From: Escherichia phage MET-P1-301
Direction: 5' to 3' (one strand)
Sequence record: PV700625
DNA: 64,000 bases
This document shows, piece after piece, positions 8,015 to 30,179 of the stretch. The stretch's first letter is position 1; each line of letters begins with the position of its first letter. A program made the translations under genes and the position numbers. The notes beneath the pieces were generated by a model. It was given only the letters and a program-made list of their open reading frames with translations. It ran no database searches and was not told the origin of the DNA.

Positions 8015-8800
8015 TTAGTTCTTTGCGTCTAAGAAGGTAACTTCCGGTGAAGAGAAAATTTCCTCAACATTCTCATCAGTTCTTGCATAGATATATGTGT
8101 CTGCATCACTGCCAAATGTTACTGCAATTCTGTGATTGCTCTTCGACAGGTGGGTAACTAGAGCGTTACTTAGAGACATCTTTTCAACCGGAGGGTTACT
8201 TTGATGTATCTTGCCTTTTCTTCGTCTGAAGAGGGTAACTGCATCATCAGTGAACGTTACTACACCTGCAAAGTATTCTGGTTCACAGTAGTTCTTCCAA
8301 CCTGAGCGTAACTTGTGGTACATCTCCCCTTCGTAGACATACAGATAGACATCTACATTCTTCATCACCTGATTAATGATAACGGTGACGGCTTGAGGGT
8401 CAAGTCCACCGATGCCTGCACCAATCATAGGTAAACCGACTTTCTTCAACTGATTAACTTCACAGTATCTGTTAAGCTGTTTCAAAGATGATTCTAAAGC
8501 ACTGTATCGGGCATCTTTACCAGTCTTAAGCTGAGTGTAAAGGTTAGCTATACGGCCTTGTTTTAAACGTGCTACAGAGAAATTACCTAGTAAGTTCTCA
8601 CAGGGCTTGTGGCCTATGCCACCTGCATACAGATAAACTTCTGTATCAGTCTCATATGCTTTTGGGTAAAGTTTAGAAATCTTGTCAGCGATACCTGCAC
8701 CCATTAAATTCATACAGTTGCAACCGTGACCAATGACGTCAAACTTACCTTTATCAAATGCGGCAAAGATATCACCATTGATGATTTTTACAATACCCAT
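8015..8800 (-). CDS. Macro-domain protein (TARG1/Poa1p-like ADP-ribose-processing domain) with an unassigned C-terminal extension
   Basis: N-terminal half carries GDIF...DVIGHGCNCMNLMGAGIA...LPMIGAGIGGLDP, matching the TARG1-type macrodomain pattern as I recall it. Confidence 0.6.
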   Translation of the reverse strand: MGIVKIINGDIFAAFDKGKFDVIGHGCNCMNLMGAGIADKISKLYPKAYETDTEVYLYAGGIGHKPCENLLGNFSVARLKQGRIANLYTQLKTGKDARYSALESSLKQLNRYCEVNQLKKVGLPMIGAGIGGLDPQAVTVIINQVMKNVDVYLYVYEGEMYHKLRSGWKNYCEPEYFAGVVTFTDDAVTLFRRRKGKIHQSNPPVEKMSLSNALVTHLSKSNHRIAVTFGSDADTYIYARTDENVEEIFSSPEVTFLDAKN

Positions 8801-15924: not shown

Positions 15925-16230
15925 TCATGTTTTTGTAAAGGATAAAGCTTCTGTCATGGACGATACTTGTAGATACTGCAAAGTTACTTTCAAGCATCTG
16001 TTTGTTTGGATTGTAGAAGCTTTCTTTAAACTCGTCAAGTGCAAATTGGTGATTGTCTGGAAGACCTTTACACACACCTTTATTGTGATTGCTGCTGCAA
16101 TCTTCCCAGTCAGTTCTTCTTTAGCTGCTACTAAGATTTTGTTGAGGAACTTATGACCATTTTCAGGCTTCTTGATGTTCTCCCAACGCTCTTCTAAGAC
16201 AATGTTGATGTTCATCTCTTTGATTTTCAT
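15925..16230 (-). CDS. hypothetical protein, possibly frameshifted
   Basis: ORF between nadV and the zinc-finger ORF. Confidence 0.35.
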   Translation of the reverse strand: MKIKEMNINIVLEERWENIKKPENGHKFLNKILVAAKEELTGKIAAAITIKVCVKVFQTITNLHLTSLKKASTIQTNRCLKVTLQYLQVSSMTEALSFTKT

Positions 16231-16244
16231 AATTTTCTCCAGAA

Positions 16245-16269
16245 ATTAAAAAGGCTCCCGTAGGAGCCT
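16245..16269 (-). terminator. Intrinsic terminator downstream of nadV
   Basis: AGGCTCCcgtaGGAGCCT followed on the minus strand by TTTTTAATTT. Confidence 0.6.
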
Positions 16270-16283
16270 ATTATCATATACTT

Positions 16284-18064
16284 TTAAAGCTGCTTGTCAA
16301 TATTATTTCGAATATCGCCAAGAGTTGTGTAGCCGAACTGCTCAGAGTCGCTAAAGACTAAACGTAAAGCACAAGCTGGATGCTCAAGTGCATCTGCAAA
16401 ACTCTGGAATCCATAGCCATCTACAGCTTTCAGATTCTCACCATCCCACATAGGGGCTACACCACCAAAAGCGGACTTCTTAATACCACTATCTGTTTTA
16501 GGGTCTTTTGCAAGCATAATCTCTTTACCACCAATGCTTGCAAGAGTTGCTTTGACAGCAAATGCAAAGGTGTCACGAGTCATGTACTGGTAAGTGTAAG
16601 AACCTACACCAAACACTACGTTAGAGCTTGCAAAACCCATTTCATACAAACGCTTCAGGATTTCGTTTGCACGTTCCAACGTGATAGAGTCACCATAGAT
16701 AAGGCCAATGTGCTCATCCAGTACCTTAAACCCTTTAGAGTTGATAGTTCCTCCAAAGATGTTATACAGGGTCTTAATGGCCCCATCAATCTCTGCTACA
16801 GGACGTGTTACAACGTTTGCAGAACCAACCATATAAGCATTTTTCAACATCACTGTATCAGCAACTTCAAAGTCTTCTCTGTCAACAACCATTTCGTAGC
16901 CTTCTGACAGTAGCCATCCAGCAATACCATAGTTGATGTTTTCAAGCTTCATGTTCAGAACAGCATTCAACATTGTGTCACTGGCTTCCAGCTTGCTTAG
17001 GTGCTCGTAATAAGCCTTCTTAGCACATTCTAAGTGGATTGCTTTATAACCTGTGACAATATGTACAGGGTCTCCAGAGTCAGGACGAATTACCAGTTTG
17101 CCATCACGTTCCATAATTTCTTTACGAAGTGCTGGTAAAATTTCTGACACAGTTCTCCAGAAGTTATAAGTGTCTGAAACAACACTTGCAATGCCAGTTG
17201 GGTAAGTTTCTGTTAAGAAACGACGGAAGGTTTGTAACTCACCTTTAAAGCGTCTTTCTTCTTCAATCAACTCATTACCACCTTCCCAAGCAATGTTTGC
17301 ACACATTACAGAGTGCTCAGTGGCTGGTACAGAACTACCAATATCAGAAATTGGGTAAGACTGTCCATAGATTCGTTTAGCCGTATACACAGCAGGAAAG
17401 CTATCAGTTCCTTTAAAGCTTGTTAAGTGACCTACAGCATTAAATGCGTCATCGGTAAAGCCGGACATACCACGCATAGCAAAGTCATGGCACTGATAAG
17501 GTAAATGTAATTCATTGTCGCAAGTAAGGTCAGCCCACTTCTTACAGATACGTTTGTAGTGCAATGCAATAGTCGCAATAGTGCAAGCCTTCCAAATCTC
17601 AGCAGAGAAAGCATCTTCCAGATAACCTGCTACCCAATGGAATCCTGAAACAGTGTTCTGGAAGACAATCATTGGGACACGCATCGGAACAACTGTGCCT
17701 TCTTCTACAGCGTATACTTCGACTGGCAGATAACCTAAGTCGTGAAGTGCTTCCCAATGCTCTCGACCAATAGCATCTTTGCCCAGAACACCGTTCATGA
17801 CTTCTAAGATTTCGTCAATTGCTTCTTTTTATCACGTTCAAAGAAAGTGGCATTCCAGTGGTCTATCAAGTAATCTTTAACAAAACGTTGAATACCAAAA
17901 GCTACTACACCGTCAATTGCTAAGGGGCTGTTAAACCATTTATCACTACGTGGTGTCAGGTTGAACATCAAGTACTCTGTTGCGCTAGGATACTGGTAAA
18001 CATGACCAGATTTGTAAGCATCTGCATTTAAACCTGCTGGTACTGCATAAAGTGATTTAGTCAT
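16284..18064 (-). CDS. nadV: Nicotinamide phosphoribosyltransferase (NadV/NAMPT), interrupted by an apparent frameshift at 17798-17830
   Basis: ORFs 17804-18064 and 16284-17798 together read as a full-length NAMPT-like protein (~590 aa); the junction sits in an A5 run (gataaaaagaag). Confidence 0.8.
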
Positions 18065-18109
18065 CTTTTAATCTCTCTCAAAATGGGGCTTGGAAGCCCC
18101 TATAAAGTT

Positions 18110-19005
18110 TTAATCAAGGTTTGCTACAGTAACTTGGCTATAATGTGTTAAGCCACGGTCTTTAGCTTCTCCTAAAGAGTTTGTAGTGTAGATATGGTCG
18201 ATACCATTGTCAAGAAGGTTTTCAACATCTTTAGAGAAGATACCATGTGTTACATAGAGTTCCACACGTTTTGCACCCACTTCACGAAGATGTTTAGCTG
18301 CTTCTATGAAGGTTCGACCACCATCACAGATATCATCCAGAATCATGACGGTTTTATCTGTCAAATCAACATCATCAAGGATTCGCATACCAGTAATTTC
18401 ACCAGTCTTAAGGTTGCGTACTTTAGACATTGTGATGTATGGTTTATCCACCTCTTTAGCGGTCTCTGCAACCTTCTTAGCAGCACCTGCATCTGGGGCT
18501 ACTAAGTAATCAACCAGTGGGTCATTTGCATAGTGGACTGCAATCTCCTTTGAGGAATACTCTGGAAGCAGTTAAACAGGTTATCTGGAACGTAACTGTG
18601 AGGGTCAACTGCACAGACTGCACCAAATCCCATTGCATTTACCTGTTTAGCAAAAACCTTTAAAGCTGCTGCGTCGCCTTTAAACATGTGACGGTCATAT
18701 CGTGCATTTGGTAAGTAGTAAAAGATGACAGTCTTTAAAGCATAATCATGAGGAATTAAATCATCAATTGCTTCTTTAGCAAGTGCCACAGCAAACAAAG
18801 TGTCCTTATCATAACCTTTTACAATCATAATCACATTGTTGATGGATGATGCTGCATAAGCGGTGAAATCAACAAACTCTGGTGAAAAGTGTCCACCAAT
18901 CTCACCAGAAGGGAATTGGATGATGTTAAACTCTTCTTCATGAGTCCCTTTAGTTGGTGAATGAACTGTAACACGGATAGATGTCTTCATAGTTTTCTCT
19001 CTCAA
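18110..19005 (-). CDS. prs: Ribose-phosphate pyrophosphokinase (PRPP synthetase), interrupted by an apparent frameshift near 18450-18560
   Basis: N-terminal piece has FPSGE and YLPNARYDRH; C-terminal piece has the PRPP-binding loop VMILDDICDGGRT. Confidence 0.75.
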
Positions 19006-19280
19006 TCAAAAGTTACGTTTGTTACTGCCATTGCAGTTTTGCATTTTGCAGGGTCTACAACGTGATAAAGTACACTACAGTTACCTGTGCTGTCTGGTAC
19101 AGGTTTAACCCATTGTTGCTTGACAGTTGGTTCGCCTAAGTCTTTGTAAGAACCATCTGTAAAGTTGTTTACCATCTCAAGTGCAATTGGCTCTGGAACA
19201 TGACCACGTATCATGTACATTTCACAACCATTACCTCCTTCACTGACTAATGGTAAAATCTCCCACTTTTCTTTAGCCAT
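19002..19280 (-). CDS. hypothetical protein (92 aa)
   Basis: ORF overlapping prs start. Confidence 0.4.
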   Translation of the reverse strand: MAKEKWEILPLVSEGGNGCEMYMIRGHVPEPIALEMVNNFTDGSYKDLGEPTVKQQWVKPVPDSTGNCSVLYHVVDPAKCKTAMAVTNVTFD

Positions 19281-19788
19281 TATAAGTTGCCCTATAAACT
19301 GTCTCGAACTTCAACAGGAGAGATATTGCCAAATCTGTATAGTTGTTGTCAAGCACATCTGGCATATTATTTTTGATATATCTCTCTTGCTCTTCATAGG
19401 TCATCTTAGGGGCACTTAAAAGGCTATCTCCTTGCTTCTGGTTATCAGCTTTAGTCTGAATAAACCAGTTTGCACAGTGATGTTCACCACCTTTTGTAAC
19501 AGGTTTGTGGTGGCCTAATGTGAAGGATTGACTGCCTGTGTATCTGCAAAGTTTATTGAGTACTGTAATGGTGTTCTTCACAACAAAACATTCATACAGG
19601 TTGTCTATGGTGTAGTGTGGATAATATCGAAATAATGCTCTTTCACGAGTACTCTCACGATTCCAGAGAATCATGTGATTGGAGTTGGAAGGGTCGTATT
19701 GGTGGGAGTCAATGAACTCTTGACGTTCCTCAAAACTGAGTCTTAACACTGACATTGCAGCAGAACGTTTCAGATTTGACAGATACAT
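19273..19788 (-). CDS. HNH-family homing endonuclease (free-standing)
   Basis: HNH-like core GHHKPVTKGGEHHCANWFIQTKADN. Confidence 0.5.
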   Translation of the reverse strand: MYLSNLKRSAAMSVLRLSFEERQEFIDSHQYDPSNSNHMILWNRESTRERALFRYYPHYTIDNLYECFVVKNTITVLNKLCRYTGSQSFTLGHHKPVTKGGEHHCANWFIQTKADNQKQGDSLLSAPKMTYEEQERYIKNNMPDVLDNNYTDLAISLLLKFETVYRATYNG

Positions 19789-19796
19789 ATTATCTC

Positions 19797-19826
19797 CAAA
19801 ATAAAAGGGAACCTTTACAGTTCCCT
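19797..19826 (-). terminator. Intrinsic terminator
   Basis: GGGAACtgtaaagGTTCCC followed by TTTTATTTT on the minus strand. Confidence 0.6.
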
Positions 19827-19838
19827 TATAGTATCTGC

Positions 19839-20159
19839 TTACTGAGCTACTTTCAAGATTCTTGTGAATGGAATTTCACTTTCTTCCATTAACTCTCTAG
19901 TTTCTTTGGTAACTTTCACAAAGTTATCTAGGCAGATAATCTTCTTATCTTTCTTACTATAGGTTAATTTAACCTTTTCAATATCTTTCTCAGAGCTTTT
20001 CTCTTCATTGAAGAGTTTTACAGCCTCTTTGAATGGGAGATATGAGCCATCATTATCACTAATGAATCCTGTACCACAATAGTAGGAGTTATGCTCTCTA
20101 GCCATAAACTGGCACAGTAAGAAAATCTGTAATTTACGAGTGTTATAAACTTTGCTCAT
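19839..20159 (-). CDS. hypothetical protein (106 aa)
   Basis: ORF. Confidence 0.4.
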   Translation of the reverse strand: MSKVYNTRKLQIFLLCQFMAREHNSYYCGTGFISDNDGSYLPFKEAVKLFNEEKSSEKDIEKVKLTYSKKDKKIICLDNFVKVTKETRELMEESEIPFTRILKVAQ

Positions 20160-20161
20160 GA

Positions 20162-20428
20162 TTATTTAGCCTTCTTATTACGTTTACGGTTACGAGCTTT
20201 CTTAGCTGCTCGTTTAATAGCTGCTGCACCAGACGGACGGTGGGCTTGTTTCTTACCACCTTTGCCACGGCCTACATAGATGTAAGGCTGCTGTTCAATT
20301 TGGCTTGTAAGAACTTGTGCAACTGCTGAAGCATCTACACCAACCTGCTTTCCAGTCATAGAAATGATTGCTGCTGCTTTTGCCAGTGCCTTCAAGAATC
20401 CAGCTTTCATATTACCTAAAATTCCCAT
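20162..20428 (-). CDS. hypothetical highly basic protein (88 aa, Lys/Arg/Ala-rich C-terminus)
   Basis: Compositional bias suggests nucleic-acid binding. Confidence 0.4.
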   Translation of the reverse strand: MGILGNMKAGFLKALAKAAAIISMTGKQVGVDASAVAQVLTSQIEQQPYIYVGRGKGGKKQAHRPSGAAAIKRAAKKARNRKRNKKAK

Positions 20429-20443
20429 TTTTAGTCTCTCTCA

Positions 20444-20764
20444 TTAAAGTTTAATACAGAACTTATGAAGTTCTTCTTCAGTAACTGTGACAACTTTATC
20501 ATCAACACGTAAGTTTGTCGCGTAAAAATTTGAGAAATGCGCTTTGTGTTTTACTTTAAATACTCCAGCAGCCTCAATACATTTCAATGCTTCCATACCA
20601 GTGGAGTCAAACAGACTTTTAGTATAGACTTTCCACTCTTCAATGGTTTCTGGATTTACTTTGTAACTACCAAATAGTGACATGTTACAGTACGACATAA
20701 CAAACTCACCGCGTTTGAATCCACCGCTACTCTGCTCTCCATTGACAGTCACCTTGCCAGCCAT
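20444..20764 (-). CDS. hypothetical protein (start set at internal Met to avoid nrdG overlap)
   Basis: Track ORF 20444-20845 overlaps the nrdG 3' end by 119 nt. Confidence 0.35.
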   Translation of the reverse strand: MAGKVTVNGEQSSGGFKRGEFVMSYCNMSLFGSYKVNPETIEEWKVYTKSLFDSTGMEALKCIEAAGVFKVKHKAHFSNFYATNLRVDDKVVTVTEEELHKFCIKL

Positions 20765-28889: not shown

Positions 28890-29214
28890 GGTATTTCTCC
28901 AAGTTTCTTTTTAGATATAACCAACCATAGTCAGTTCTTTCTACACCCATGAAGAGTGGAGCCATTACAACTTTACCAAAAGTATTCCTGTGTTGACAGA
29001 TTTCAAAAGAATACTCTTTCTCAATATCAATCCCGTATTTGTACAGGACTGCTTTTAAAACTTGTTCATTATCCAGAAGTGTATCTGGAGTCTCACCATA
29101 CTTCTCAAGTAACGGGTCATTCATAAACACCGTCATAGAAATATTGTAGTTTGAGAAGTGGCTCTTCTGAGCCACACCTTCTTTATTAATGTTCTGTGAA
29201 TCCATTATAACCAA
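28882..29214 (-). CDS. hypothetical protein (110 aa)
   Basis: ORF. Confidence 0.4.
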   Translation of the reverse strand: MVIMDSQNINKEGVAQKSHFSNYNISMTVFMNDPLLEKYGETPDTLLDNEQVLKAVLYKYGIDIEKEYSFEICQHRNTFGKVVMAPLFMGVERTDYGWLYLKRNLEKYRV

Positions 29215-29851
29215 CCCCTTTTAACCAGCACTTCAGGTTATTAGCATCATAATTCAGTTTCGGGTATGAGGTTACATGGAACTGCTCACCATCATAGTAG
29301 ACAATATCTGCAATCCATAGTCCATTCTCTTTACAGAAATCTTTATCTGCTTTAGAGGTAATTGGATTAACTTCTACAAAACCATCTACACCCAAATCCT
29401 TTAAGCTACATACAATACCTTTGCAGATAACGCATGTCTCAGATACTACCACAAAAAGTTCTTGGCTTTCAAGCTCTACAATGTATTCACCAAGCTGTAC
29501 TTTAGGGAGATTTGATTGCTTCATAATCTTCCCATCGGCTGCACGAACAATCGCATACCACTCTTTACCATCAACTACTGACATTCTGATGATACACTCT
29601 TGACCAGTACGCTTCTCAATATCTGCAAGACGCTTTAAAGCTTCTTCATAGTCGTCTGTATACTTCAGGTCATTATTATGGCAAACAGCTTCCATAGCAC
29701 CATTATGGTCATGTTGTGACAGGTAAATCAAACCGTCAAGGACATATTGCAAATCTGCCTGAGCATCAAGTGTCTCAATGGGGTCTTTCTCTTCAATTGC
29801 TTTTACAAGCTCTTTTGCTTCTTCAAGCATACATAGAGATTGAGATTTCAA
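29186..29851 (-). CDS. hypothetical protein (221 aa)
   Basis: ORF. Confidence 0.45.
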   Translation of the reverse strand: MKSQSLCMLEEAKELVKAIEEKDPIETLDAQADLQYVLDGLIYLSQHDHNGAMEAVCHNNDLKYTDDYEEALKRLADIEKRTGQECIIRMSVVDGKEWYAIVRAADGKIMKQSNLPKVQLGEYIVELESQELFVVVSETCVICKGIVCSLKDLGVDGFVEVNPITSKADKDFCKENGLWIADIVYYDGEQFHVTSYPKLNYDANNLKCWLKGVGYNGFTEH

Positions 29852-29915
29852 AGATTCCCAATACTCATTACTGTAAGGTTGCTTTTGAGTGTTCCCACAA
29901 CGAAGATTCCAGTTT

Positions 29916-30179
29916 TTACTGATTCTCTTGAGTTAAACATTTGGACTCCTTAAAATATCTGTTAACCTTTAGCTCTCGTGTTTCAATATATTCCAGATGC
30001 TCACGTAGCTCTTGACGTTTAAGCATTAGGTGCTGCATTTGAGATTCAACAGCTTCAACTTCTCTAATTATTGACTCTCTGGCATTTGCAAGAATGCGCC
30101 CAAGTTCTTCAATCTTGCTGTCAACTTTTGCTACATGACTCACAGCTTTACTTTTGTTAAACATTTTATTCTCTCTCAA
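29916..30179 (-). CDS. hypothetical coiled-coil protein (87 aa)
   Basis: Charged helical sequence. Confidence 0.4.
   Translation of the reverse strand: MRENKMFNKSKAVSHVAKVDSKIEELGRILANARESIIREVEAVESQMQHLMLKRQELREHLEYIETRELKVNRYFKESKCLTQENQ

Follow-up and report, generated by a model that had tools for sequence, protein, structure and literature searches.

A Felixounavirus gene pair that very probably represents the NAD+ reconstitution pathway NARP1, with a homopolymer frame break in each gene

Gene layout of the adps-namat locus

The 64,000-nucleotide stretch of DNA analysed here (the window) comes from a Felix O1-like phage (Felixounavirus). On its minus strand, a Prs-family gene and a Nampt-family gene lie next to each other in the same orientation, as the initial annotation of this DNA had reported. 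The Prs-family gene, which we call adps, is upstream of the Nampt-family gene, namat, and 45 nucleotides separate them. The main features of the locus are as follows.

18110..18990, minus strand: adps, putative ADP-ribose pyrophosphate synthetase of the Prs family, 293 amino acids after restoring one base
16284..18064, minus strand: namat, putative nicotinamide ADP-ribose transferase of the Nampt family, 593 amino acids after restoring one base
18085..18100, minus strand: spacer hairpin GGGGCU-UCCA-AGCCCC, then AUUUUG (dG -11.5 kcal/mol, z -2.2)
16243..16269, minus strand: intrinsic-terminator-like hairpin and T tract, 15 nucleotides past the namat stop codon
16111..20728, minus strand: variable block of 4.6 kb, with nrdG on one side and the small genes upstream of rIIA on the other

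The coordinates first given for the two genes hold, apart from the Prs start at 19005. This TTG is a mechanical start, and the gene begins in relatives at the ATG at 18990. Neither gene is a single ORF in the sequence as given; a -1 break that splits each of them had been overlooked. A terminator had been placed after the second gene (then named nadV), and the hairpin found there at 16252-16269 (AGGCUCC-UACG-GGAGCCU, then UUUUU; dG -13.8 kcal/mol, z -3.3) bears this out. The spacer hairpin is absent from the list of the terminator scan, and we regard its T tract as too weak for a terminator call. When the spacer hairpin is aligned to that of phage HY02, the loop is the sole difference.

The variable block contains adps, namat and four small genes (88, 106, 171 and 92 amino acids), which come and go together with the pair; the 92-amino-acid gene ends 12 nucleotides before adps. 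A Felixounavirus contig that is otherwise 96% identical (L009) has 141 nucleotides in place of the block, and a further contig (L011) has the same gene order as L009.

Frame breaks at homopolymer runs

As written, the sequence encodes neither enzyme at full length. The adps gene is divided between two frames into parts of 167 and 113 amino acids (18990..18502 and 18451..18110), and namat, likewise in two frames, into parts of 86 and 504 amino acids (18064..17804 and 17798..16284). Each break maps to the loss of one base from a run of A.

18549..18551, minus strand: adps break, A3 where relatives have A4, a 1-nucleotide deletion with a -1 shift (HY02 alignment columns 541-560)
17826..17830, minus strand: namat break, A5 where relatives have A6, a 1-nucleotide deletion with a -1 shift (HY02 alignment columns 1261-1280)

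From HY02 to the window, the adps site changes from CTCAAAAGGA to CTCAAAGGA and the namat site from GACAAAAAAG to GATAAAAAG, with one A lost in each. The adps deletion occurs in none of 102 matching phage records, and the namat deletion in none of 122. A census of homopolymer runs over the whole window against phage fjerdesal found 34 runs shortened and 1 lengthened on the window's side. Shortening affected 0% of the runs of length 3, 1.4% of those of length 4, 14% of those of length 5 and 65% of those of length 6. About 20 genes are broken in the window, among them those for DNA polymerase (3 breaks, at about 38846, 38917 and 39921), dNMP kinase (3), NrdD, NrdB, ThyA and rIIA, and all of the genes broken in the window are intact in contigs with an identical NrdA protein. 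Because runs are shortened 34 times for each time that one is lengthened, because shortening depends on run length and strikes essential genes, and because relatives have neither deletion, the frame breaks in adps and namat are most likely sequencing errors in the form of homopolymer under-calls. The phage itself probably carries both genes intact.

If the breaks were real, the pathway to which we assign these genes (NAD+ reconstitution pathway 1, or NARP1) would be inactivated and both genes would be pseudogenes, for example after growth on a host without an NAD+-depleting defence. Both genes are indeed broken in the sequence as given, and NARP1 is dispensable, the whole block being absent from otherwise near-identical Felixounavirus contigs. 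We nevertheless consider real inactivation improbable. Similar 1-nucleotide deletions break the genes for DNA polymerase (three times), NrdD, NrdB and ThyA, which is incompatible with a viable phage, and the frequency of deletions is set by run length alone, in a strongly one-sided direction. The two breaks observed in adps and namat also fit the 1.27 expected from the window-wide rate, and outside the two missing bases the frames are fully conserved, with Namat 98% identical to its counterpart in phage Bas63.

Programmed breaks are scarcely conceivable. On this reading, full-length enzymes would be made at a regulated level by -1 ribosomal frameshifting or by slippage of transcription on the A runs, and the namat site, U AAA AAG, presumably resembles the A-AAG slippery class. 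Against this, the A3 run in adps does not form a slippery heptamer, and RNA polymerase does not slip efficiently on runs as short as 3 to 5. All relatives compared, more than 100 per site, have the in-frame version, and deletions of the same kind also affect many other, unrelated genes as well as DNA between genes. We rejected both programmed frameshifting and real pseudogenes on the fjerdesal census and on the count of zero relatives with either deletion, and we retain homopolymer under-calling as the preferred explanation. Since the homopolymer deletions in the window are systematic, any 'pseudogene' or 'frameshift' reported from it should be met with distrust.

Relation to the Bas63 operon and to other known systems

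A profile search of the two proteins, which the initial annotation had proposed, agrees with its choice of families. In Pfam, Adps matches PF00156 and PF14572 (Prs family) and Namat matches PF04095 and PF18127 (Nampt family); no match of Adps to the Prs N-terminal domain is listed at E up to 0.01. Adps clears only the broad Prs subfamily model TIGR01251 (123 bits, cut-off 113) and is below the cut-off in all eight Prs equivalog models (NF002095, for example, at 105 versus 296). In an alignment to one Prs only, 4TWB, the K and R of its S-K-V-R stretch (residues 189-192) fall opposite those of 'ekerd'. The catalytic lysine of Adps is K162 in the homologue from the Bacillus phage SpbetaL1, equivalent to K197 of B. 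subtilis Prs. The repaired protein is 99.7% identical to that of phage KEP1. By plain pairwise score, the validated Adps of Bacillus phage FADO (53 bits) is no nearer to it than an archaeal Prs (70 bits); the protein is therefore assigned to the Adps clade on the grounds of Bas63 and the published tree.

Bas63 (Escherichia phage JohannRWettstein) belongs to the same genus and has the pair at the same genomic position, with the same gene order, 45-nucleotide spacer and pair of Pfam families. The neighbourhood common to both phages consists of nrdG, small genes, the 92-amino-acid gene, gene 79, gene 80, small genes and rIIA. Repaired Adps is 78% identical to Bas63 gp79 (293/293 amino acids, no gaps), and repaired Namat is 98% identical to gp80 (593/593 amino acids, no gaps). 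The repaired proteins are thus orthologous over their whole length to the products of genes 79 and 80 of Bas63. The N-terminal 180 residues of Adps are 68% identical to Bas63 and the C-terminal part 94%, and the N-terminal part belongs to a different allele class. Unlike Bas63, the present sequence has a 1-nucleotide homopolymer deletion in each gene, which is probably an artefact.

NARP1 was studied by Osterman et al., whose journal version reportedly appeared in Nature in 2024. Bas63 genes 79-80 are its founding example, Bas63 without these genes is sensitised to the defence system SIR2-HerA, and ADPR-pyrophosphate (ADPR-PP) builds up in Bas63-infected cells (Osterman et al., bioRxiv 10.1101/2024.02.11.579819). 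The purified-enzyme work behind the pathway used SpbetaL1 homologues, and the substrate preferences of Adps (ADPR over ribose-5-phosphate) and Namat (ADPR-PP over PRPP) have been shown for SpbetaL1 and other homologues.

Two selectivity-clamp elements of Namat enzymes are both present here.

17933..17950, minus strand: RSDKWF codons (residues 39-44), selectivity-clamp loop, the same as in Bas63
16572..16604, minus strand: GSYTYQYMTRD codons (residues 488-498), signature of the selectivity-clamp helix, in agreement with the NARP1 motif

The loop of Namat enzymes has either an Arg at the third position or a Lys or Tyr followed by a stacking residue (PMC12774641), and in the window it reads S-D-K-W (residues 40-43), with Lys42 followed by Trp43. 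This K-W arrangement has been described for Bas63 Namat, where stacking by it has been seen only in an AlphaFold3 model (PMC12774641). The helix signature, GS-X-phi-X-phi-X-phi-TRD with aromatic X, is reported to be absent from Nampt (PMC12774641).

The best solved structure for Namat is that of SpbetaL1 Namat (9W5W/9W5X; PMC12774641), which aligns over its full length at 431 bits. True Nampts score lower (Xanthomonas Nampt 181 bits, human NAMPT 141 bits). Aligned with 9W5W, the stretches HDFAMRG, GTDSF, ATEHS and IRPDSGD conserve the residues of the Nampt-like core, defined as the nicotinamide-pocket Phe and Arg, an Asp, the catalytic His and an Arg equivalent to SpbetaL1 R306. The helix motif reads GSFTYQYNTRD in SpbetaL1 and GSYTYQYMTRD here, and the catalytic core stretches are conserved in both. 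The Felixounavirus protein is about 100 amino acids longer, with insertions of about 77 (351-427) and about 15 amino acids (about 258-272), and its clamp loop has K-W where SpbetaL1 has Arg40.

The initial annotation had read the pair as a true PRPP synthetase and a nicotinamide phosphoribosyltransferase that make NMN out of ribose-5-phosphate, ATP and nicotinamide, with the last adenylylation performed by the host or by an enzyme encoded elsewhere in the phage. Names of Prs or Nampt type are given to these proteins by Pfam, NCBIfam and PHROGs as well as by almost every GenBank annotation, and in vitro, if no ADPR-PP is supplied, SpbetaL1 Namat does convert PRPP to NMN. Offered PRPP and ADPR-PP together, however, Namat yields only NAD+, and in a Prs-type assay no product could be measured for the purified gene 79 homologue from SpbetaL1, which did pyrophosphorylate ADPR. 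A route from PRPP to NMN was also the first hypothesis of the Bas63 operon's authors, who refuted it (Osterman et al.). In a host without pncC and nadR, Bas63 still overcomes SIR2-HerA (Osterman et al.), and this result, obtained with an operon whose proteins are 78% and 98% identical to those in the window, speaks against the NMN route and against a host-supplied last step alike. Together with the clamp motif in the Nampt-family protein and the failure of the Prs-like protein to reach any Prs equivalog cut-off, these observations make the PRPP/NMN reading very improbable. Because of the orthology to Bas63 and the results on that operon, we identify the enzymes as Adps and Namat, not as Prs and NadV.

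The absence of an NMN adenylyltransferase from the window, noted at the outset, is confirmed by a search for the NMNAT signature GxFxPxHxGH, which found none in six frames of the 64 kb (about 23 kb of the phage lies outside the window), and the complete Bas63 genome has no Nmnat annotation either; both results count against the NMN route. By analogy with Bas63, this enzyme would not be "missing", as NARP1 does not include one. In these respects the locus can be set beside NARP2, the NadV-NatV system of phage KVP40 (a Nampt and a bifunctional Nmnat), which likewise uses a Nampt-family enzyme and restores NAD+ during infection, as would the pair described here. NARP2 works via PRPP and NMN and requires Nmnat, whereas no signature of that enzyme was found in the window, where the Nampt-family protein shows the Namat motif and has an Adps as its partner.

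Possible accessory genes and the proposed pathway

In Vibrio phage Gary, a variant called NARP1-AP has the order Adps, Macro-domain phosphatase Adpp and Namat (bioRxiv 10.64898/2026.01.28.702374), and the locus in the window has the same two core enzymes. No gene with a Macro or RyR domain (RyDEP) was found among the neighbours within two genes of adps and namat. A Macro-domain gene occurs elsewhere in the window.

8018-8800: Macro-domain gene, 7.5 kb downstream of adps and namat, the only Macro gene in the window

Felixounaviruses might possess a dispersed form of NARP1-AP, in which this Macro 'phosphatase' would turn ADPR-1''-phosphate, the product of aRES defence proteins, into ADPR for Adps. 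Such an arrangement would escape the published survey, because that survey covered only two genes on either side of NARP1. The Macro protein is 29% identical to the in-operon Macro protein of the related Vibrio phage Athena, but its identity to T4 Tk.4, now regarded as the anti-DarTG2 factor AdfM, is higher (35%). Among solved structures, its best matches are OARD1/TARG1 and coronavirus Mac1, and Poa1p is matched only at E = 0.027. We judge a role as a dispersed Adpp unlikely.

A weaker variant of this idea is that a small gene of the 4.6-kb block, such as the 92-amino-acid gene, encodes an unrecognised accessory factor. Homologues of that gene number 230 records, and the matches sampled come from phages of the Felix O1 type, with Escherichia, Salmonella and Shigella as hosts and genomes of about 84-91 kb. 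We rejected this gene as a conserved partner of NARP1, since the sampled homologues come only from close relatives and give no independent sign of linkage. The aRES inhibitor aRad1 was also set aside as a lead, having been discovered by co-folding and not by adjacency to NARP1.

The two genes are very probably a Felixounavirus copy of NARP1, with frame breaks that are most likely homopolymer under-calls. Judging from the literature on its orthologues, the pair would act after a defence system (SIR2-HerA, Thoeris type I, DSR1/2 or SEFIR) splits NAD+ into ADP-ribose and nicotinamide. Adps would pyrophosphorylate ADP-ribose with ATP to form ADPR-PP, and Namat, with its adenine-binding selectivity clamp, would then exchange the pyrophosphate of ADPR-PP for nicotinamide to give NAD+. 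NAD+ would thus be rebuilt in two steps, with neither an NMN intermediate nor an adenylyltransferase. The early suggestion of an NAD+-restoring counter-defence module, directed at systems such as Thoeris, DSR and SIR2, therefore seems to have been right in idea, given the orthology to Bas63.

The adps-namat pathway is already known and was published on the same gene pair in a sister phage. The database names Prs, NadV and 'nicotinate phosphoribosyltransferase' still mislead, pointing to a PRPP/NMN scheme and a hunt for a missing adenylyltransferase. Through NARP1, phages remake a metabolite destroyed by host immunity, via two previously undescribed reactions.

Organization and identity of the gene pair

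The initial annotation read the interval 16284-19005, on the reverse strand, as a PRPP synthetase gene followed by a nicotinamide phosphoribosyltransferase gene. A mechanical ORF list resolves two neighbouring genes here, neither of which is a single ORF. The gene order, co-orientation, and terminator after the second gene stand as annotated, but both frame breaks had been overlooked.

Features of the adps-namat pair
19005..18502 (167 aa) and 18451..18110 (113 aa), reverse strand: pieces of the Prs-family gene, adps, in different frames
18064..17804 (86 aa) and 17798..16284 (504 aa), reverse strand: pieces of the Nampt-family gene, namat, in different frames
18085-18100, reverse strand: small hairpin in the 45-nt adps-namat spacer (dG -11.5)
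16243-16269, reverse strand: terminator-like hairpin with a T tract, 3' of namat (dG -13.8, z -3.3)

With the halves joined, the repaired proteins are 293 aa (Pfam PF00156 and PF14572, Prs family) and 593 aa (PF04095 and PF18127, Nampt family) in length. Relatives start adps at the ATG at 18990 instead of the TTG at 19005. A promoter-like site, strong at 11/12 matches (TTGACA, 16 nt, TATGAT), lies at 16273-16300 on the reverse strand, overlapping the final namat codons directly ahead of the terminator hairpin, and could drive the small genes downstream.

NAD+ reconstitution pathway 1 (NARP1) was first described from this Pfam pair in a Felixounavirus, namely genes 79-80 of phage JohannRWettstein (Bas63) (Osterman et al., bioRxiv 10.1101/2024.02.11.579819). 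On comparison with the Bas63 genome (MZ501086), both repaired proteins align without gaps over their full lengths, the Nampt-like protein with gp80 (98% identity, 593/593 residues) and the Prs-like protein with gp79 (78%, 293/293). The neighbourhood is also the same, running through nrdG, small genes, a 92-aa gene, the pair, small genes, and rIIA. The system is therefore the already published NARP1, in the genus of its discovery, and is not new.

The chemistry first proposed for our pair, in which Prs makes PRPP, Nampt makes NMN, and the host completes the pathway, was also the starting hypothesis of Osterman et al., and was refuted by them for the Bas63 operon. Bas63 overcomes SIR2-HerA even in a host without pncC and nadR, and infected cells contain ADPR-pyrophosphate (ADPR-PP) only if the phage carries genes 79-80. 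In purified form, the gene 79 homologue of SpbetaL1 pyrophosphorylates ADP-ribose and gave no measurable product in a Prs-type assay; the second enzyme converts ADPR-PP and nicotinamide to NAD+, which remains the only product when PRPP is also offered. These enzymes were named Adps and Namat (Osterman et al.). All six frames of the window lack an NMNAT signature, and the Bas63 genome has no annotated NMNAT; the adenylyltransferase reported as missing is one that NARP1 does not need. The suggestion of counter-defence by restoring NAD+ is borne out, the pair being orthologous to Bas63 genes 79-80; the proposed PRPP/NMN chemistry is not.

Frame breaks and homopolymer deletions

Within Felixounavirus, the genus of this phage, 256 phage records match the region, and phage HY02 is the best match at 96.9%. 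Its alignment (2903 nt, versus 2901 in the window) has exactly two 1-nt gaps, each representing one A missing from a homopolymer. "Campylobacter phage A132/A126" records (MG065664.1, MG065668.1) match the Felixounavirus region at 98%, and one Staphylococcus record also matches it; these are probably mislabelled or contaminated entries.

Frame breaks caused by 1-nt homopolymer deletions
18549-18551, reverse strand: adps, A4 to A3 relative to HY02
17826-17830, reverse strand: namat, A6 to A5 relative to HY02
38846, 38917, 39921: DNA polymerase
35425, 35554, 35651: dNMP kinase
24353: nrdD
25237: nrdB
47979: thyA
14788: rIIA

Three explanations were weighed, namely errors in the sequencing, true pseudogenes, and programmed frameshifting. 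When 70 annotated proteins of phage fjerdesal were compared with the window, ~20 were found split between frames, some of them essential, including DNA polymerase and dNMP kinase (three breaks each), NrdD, NrdB, thymidylate synthase, 5'-3' exonuclease, and rIIA. In a nucleotide comparison, the window shows 34 homopolymer runs shortened relative to fjerdesal and only 1 lengthened, and the shortened fraction climbs steeply with run length, from 0/1324 for runs of 3 through 5/358 (4) and 16/113 (5) to 13/20 (6), or 65% of runs of 6. The deletions fall systematically in A/T homopolymers, in coding and non-coding DNA alike. These rates predict 1.27 shortened runs within adps and namat, where 2 are observed.

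Neither deletion is present in phage records matching the site-centred 61-mers (0/102 for adps, 0/122 for namat), the best of which differ solely by the gap, and all affected genes are intact in metagenomic contigs encoding an identical NrdA protein. Because a phage with three polymerase frameshifts would be non-viable, the pattern is a property of the sequence and not of the phage. We therefore consider it very likely that both breaks are homopolymer under-calls, and that adps and namat are intact in the real phage. Frameshift or pseudogene calls drawn from anywhere in the window are accordingly suspect.

Features of Namat and Adps

Among solved structures, the Nampt-like protein scores highest against 9W5W/9W5X (431 bits), which are SpbetaL1 Namat (PMC12774641), compared with 181 bits for Xanthomonas Nampt and 141-144 for human or rodent NAMPT. 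Namat enzymes carry a specific "selectivity clamp" with two parts (NAR 2026, PMC12774641): a helix motif, GS-X-phi-X-phi-X-phi-TRD, in which X is aromatic and stacks against the ADPR-PP adenine, and a variable loop contributing a further stacking residue, which follows a Lys in Bas63. Both clamp elements are identical to those of Bas63, and alignment to 9W5W shows that stretches with the nicotinamide- and ribose-phosphate-binding core residues are conserved.

Clamp elements in Namat
16572-16604, reverse strand: helix motif GSYTYQYMTRD, residues 488-498
17933-17950, reverse strand: loop R-S-D-K-W-F, residues 39-44

Unlike the crystallised SpbetaL1 Namat, the Felixounavirus protein has a ~77-aa insertion (residues 351-427, 16784-17014), also present in Bas63, and a smaller one of ~15 aa near residues 258-272.

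The Prs-like protein passes a broad Prs subfamily model (123 versus 113 bits) and none of the Prs equivalog models tried. Its closest solved relative is an archaeal Prs (70 bits), and both the PRPP-loop motif and the Lys/Arg of the flexible loop are retained. No diagnostic motif underlies its assignment as a putative Adps, which instead draws on the published tree and on Bas63 gp79 being its orthologue. Relative to Bas63, adps is mosaic, with 68% identity over residues 1-180 and 94% over residues 181-293, next to namat at 98%. Identities across phage records are bimodal, with 154 records at >=90%, 94 at 60-80%, and 4 between, a distribution that suggests two allele classes of the N-terminal half (18451-18990) swapped by recombination.

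Neighbouring genes and the accessory cassette

Known NARP1 accessory genes encode the Macro-domain ADPR-1''-phosphate phosphatase Adpp, which forms NARP1-AP (bioRxiv 10.64898/2026.01.28.702374), and the RyR-domain glycosidase RyDEP. Neither an Adpp-like Macro gene nor a RyDEP-like RyR gene is among the immediate neighbours of adps and namat. A Macro gene does lie 7.5 kb from the pair.

Other genes discussed
8018-8800, reverse strand: 261-aa "putative phosphatase", N-terminal Macro domain PF01661 (32 bits)
19002-19280, reverse strand: 92-aa gene, phrog_4726, ending 12 nt upstream of the adps start codon

The published accessory survey covered genes within two of NARP1, so a dispersed arrangement would go unnoticed, and Vibrio phage Athena has a Macro gene between adps and namat in a NARP1-AP-type operon. 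The Athena protein is 29% identical to the 8018-8800 product, whereas T4 Tk.4, identified in a 2025 preprint as the anti-DarTG2 macrodomain AdfM, is nearer at 35%. The C-terminal half of the 8018-8800 product is ~100 aa long, and the family spans ~2850 phage records, T4 itself included. It is improbable that this gene works with NARP1 as a dispersed NARP1-AP; it is probably a second ADP-ribose-related counter-defence gene. Elsewhere, among replication genes, a MazG-like protein (29189-29917, reverse strand; PF01503, phosphoribosyl-ATP pyrophosphohydrolase family) is encoded that may likewise act on nucleotide metabolites.

Homologues of the 92-aa gene (230 records) were found only in close relatives, and the hits sampled are Felix O1-like phages that infect Escherichia, Salmonella, and Shigella; its membership of NARP1 thus gains no independent support. 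The gene is gained and lost together with a 4.6-kb block (16111-20728) comprising four small genes along with adps and namat. Felixounavirus contigs that are otherwise 96% identical have 141 nt in place of the block (17787-17927 in L009, with the same gene order in L011), and in contig L010 an HNH_3 homing-endonuclease gene (20222-20713) is inserted between adps and namat. Its absence from near relatives and its interruption in L010 indicate that NARP1 is an accessory cassette in Felixounavirus.
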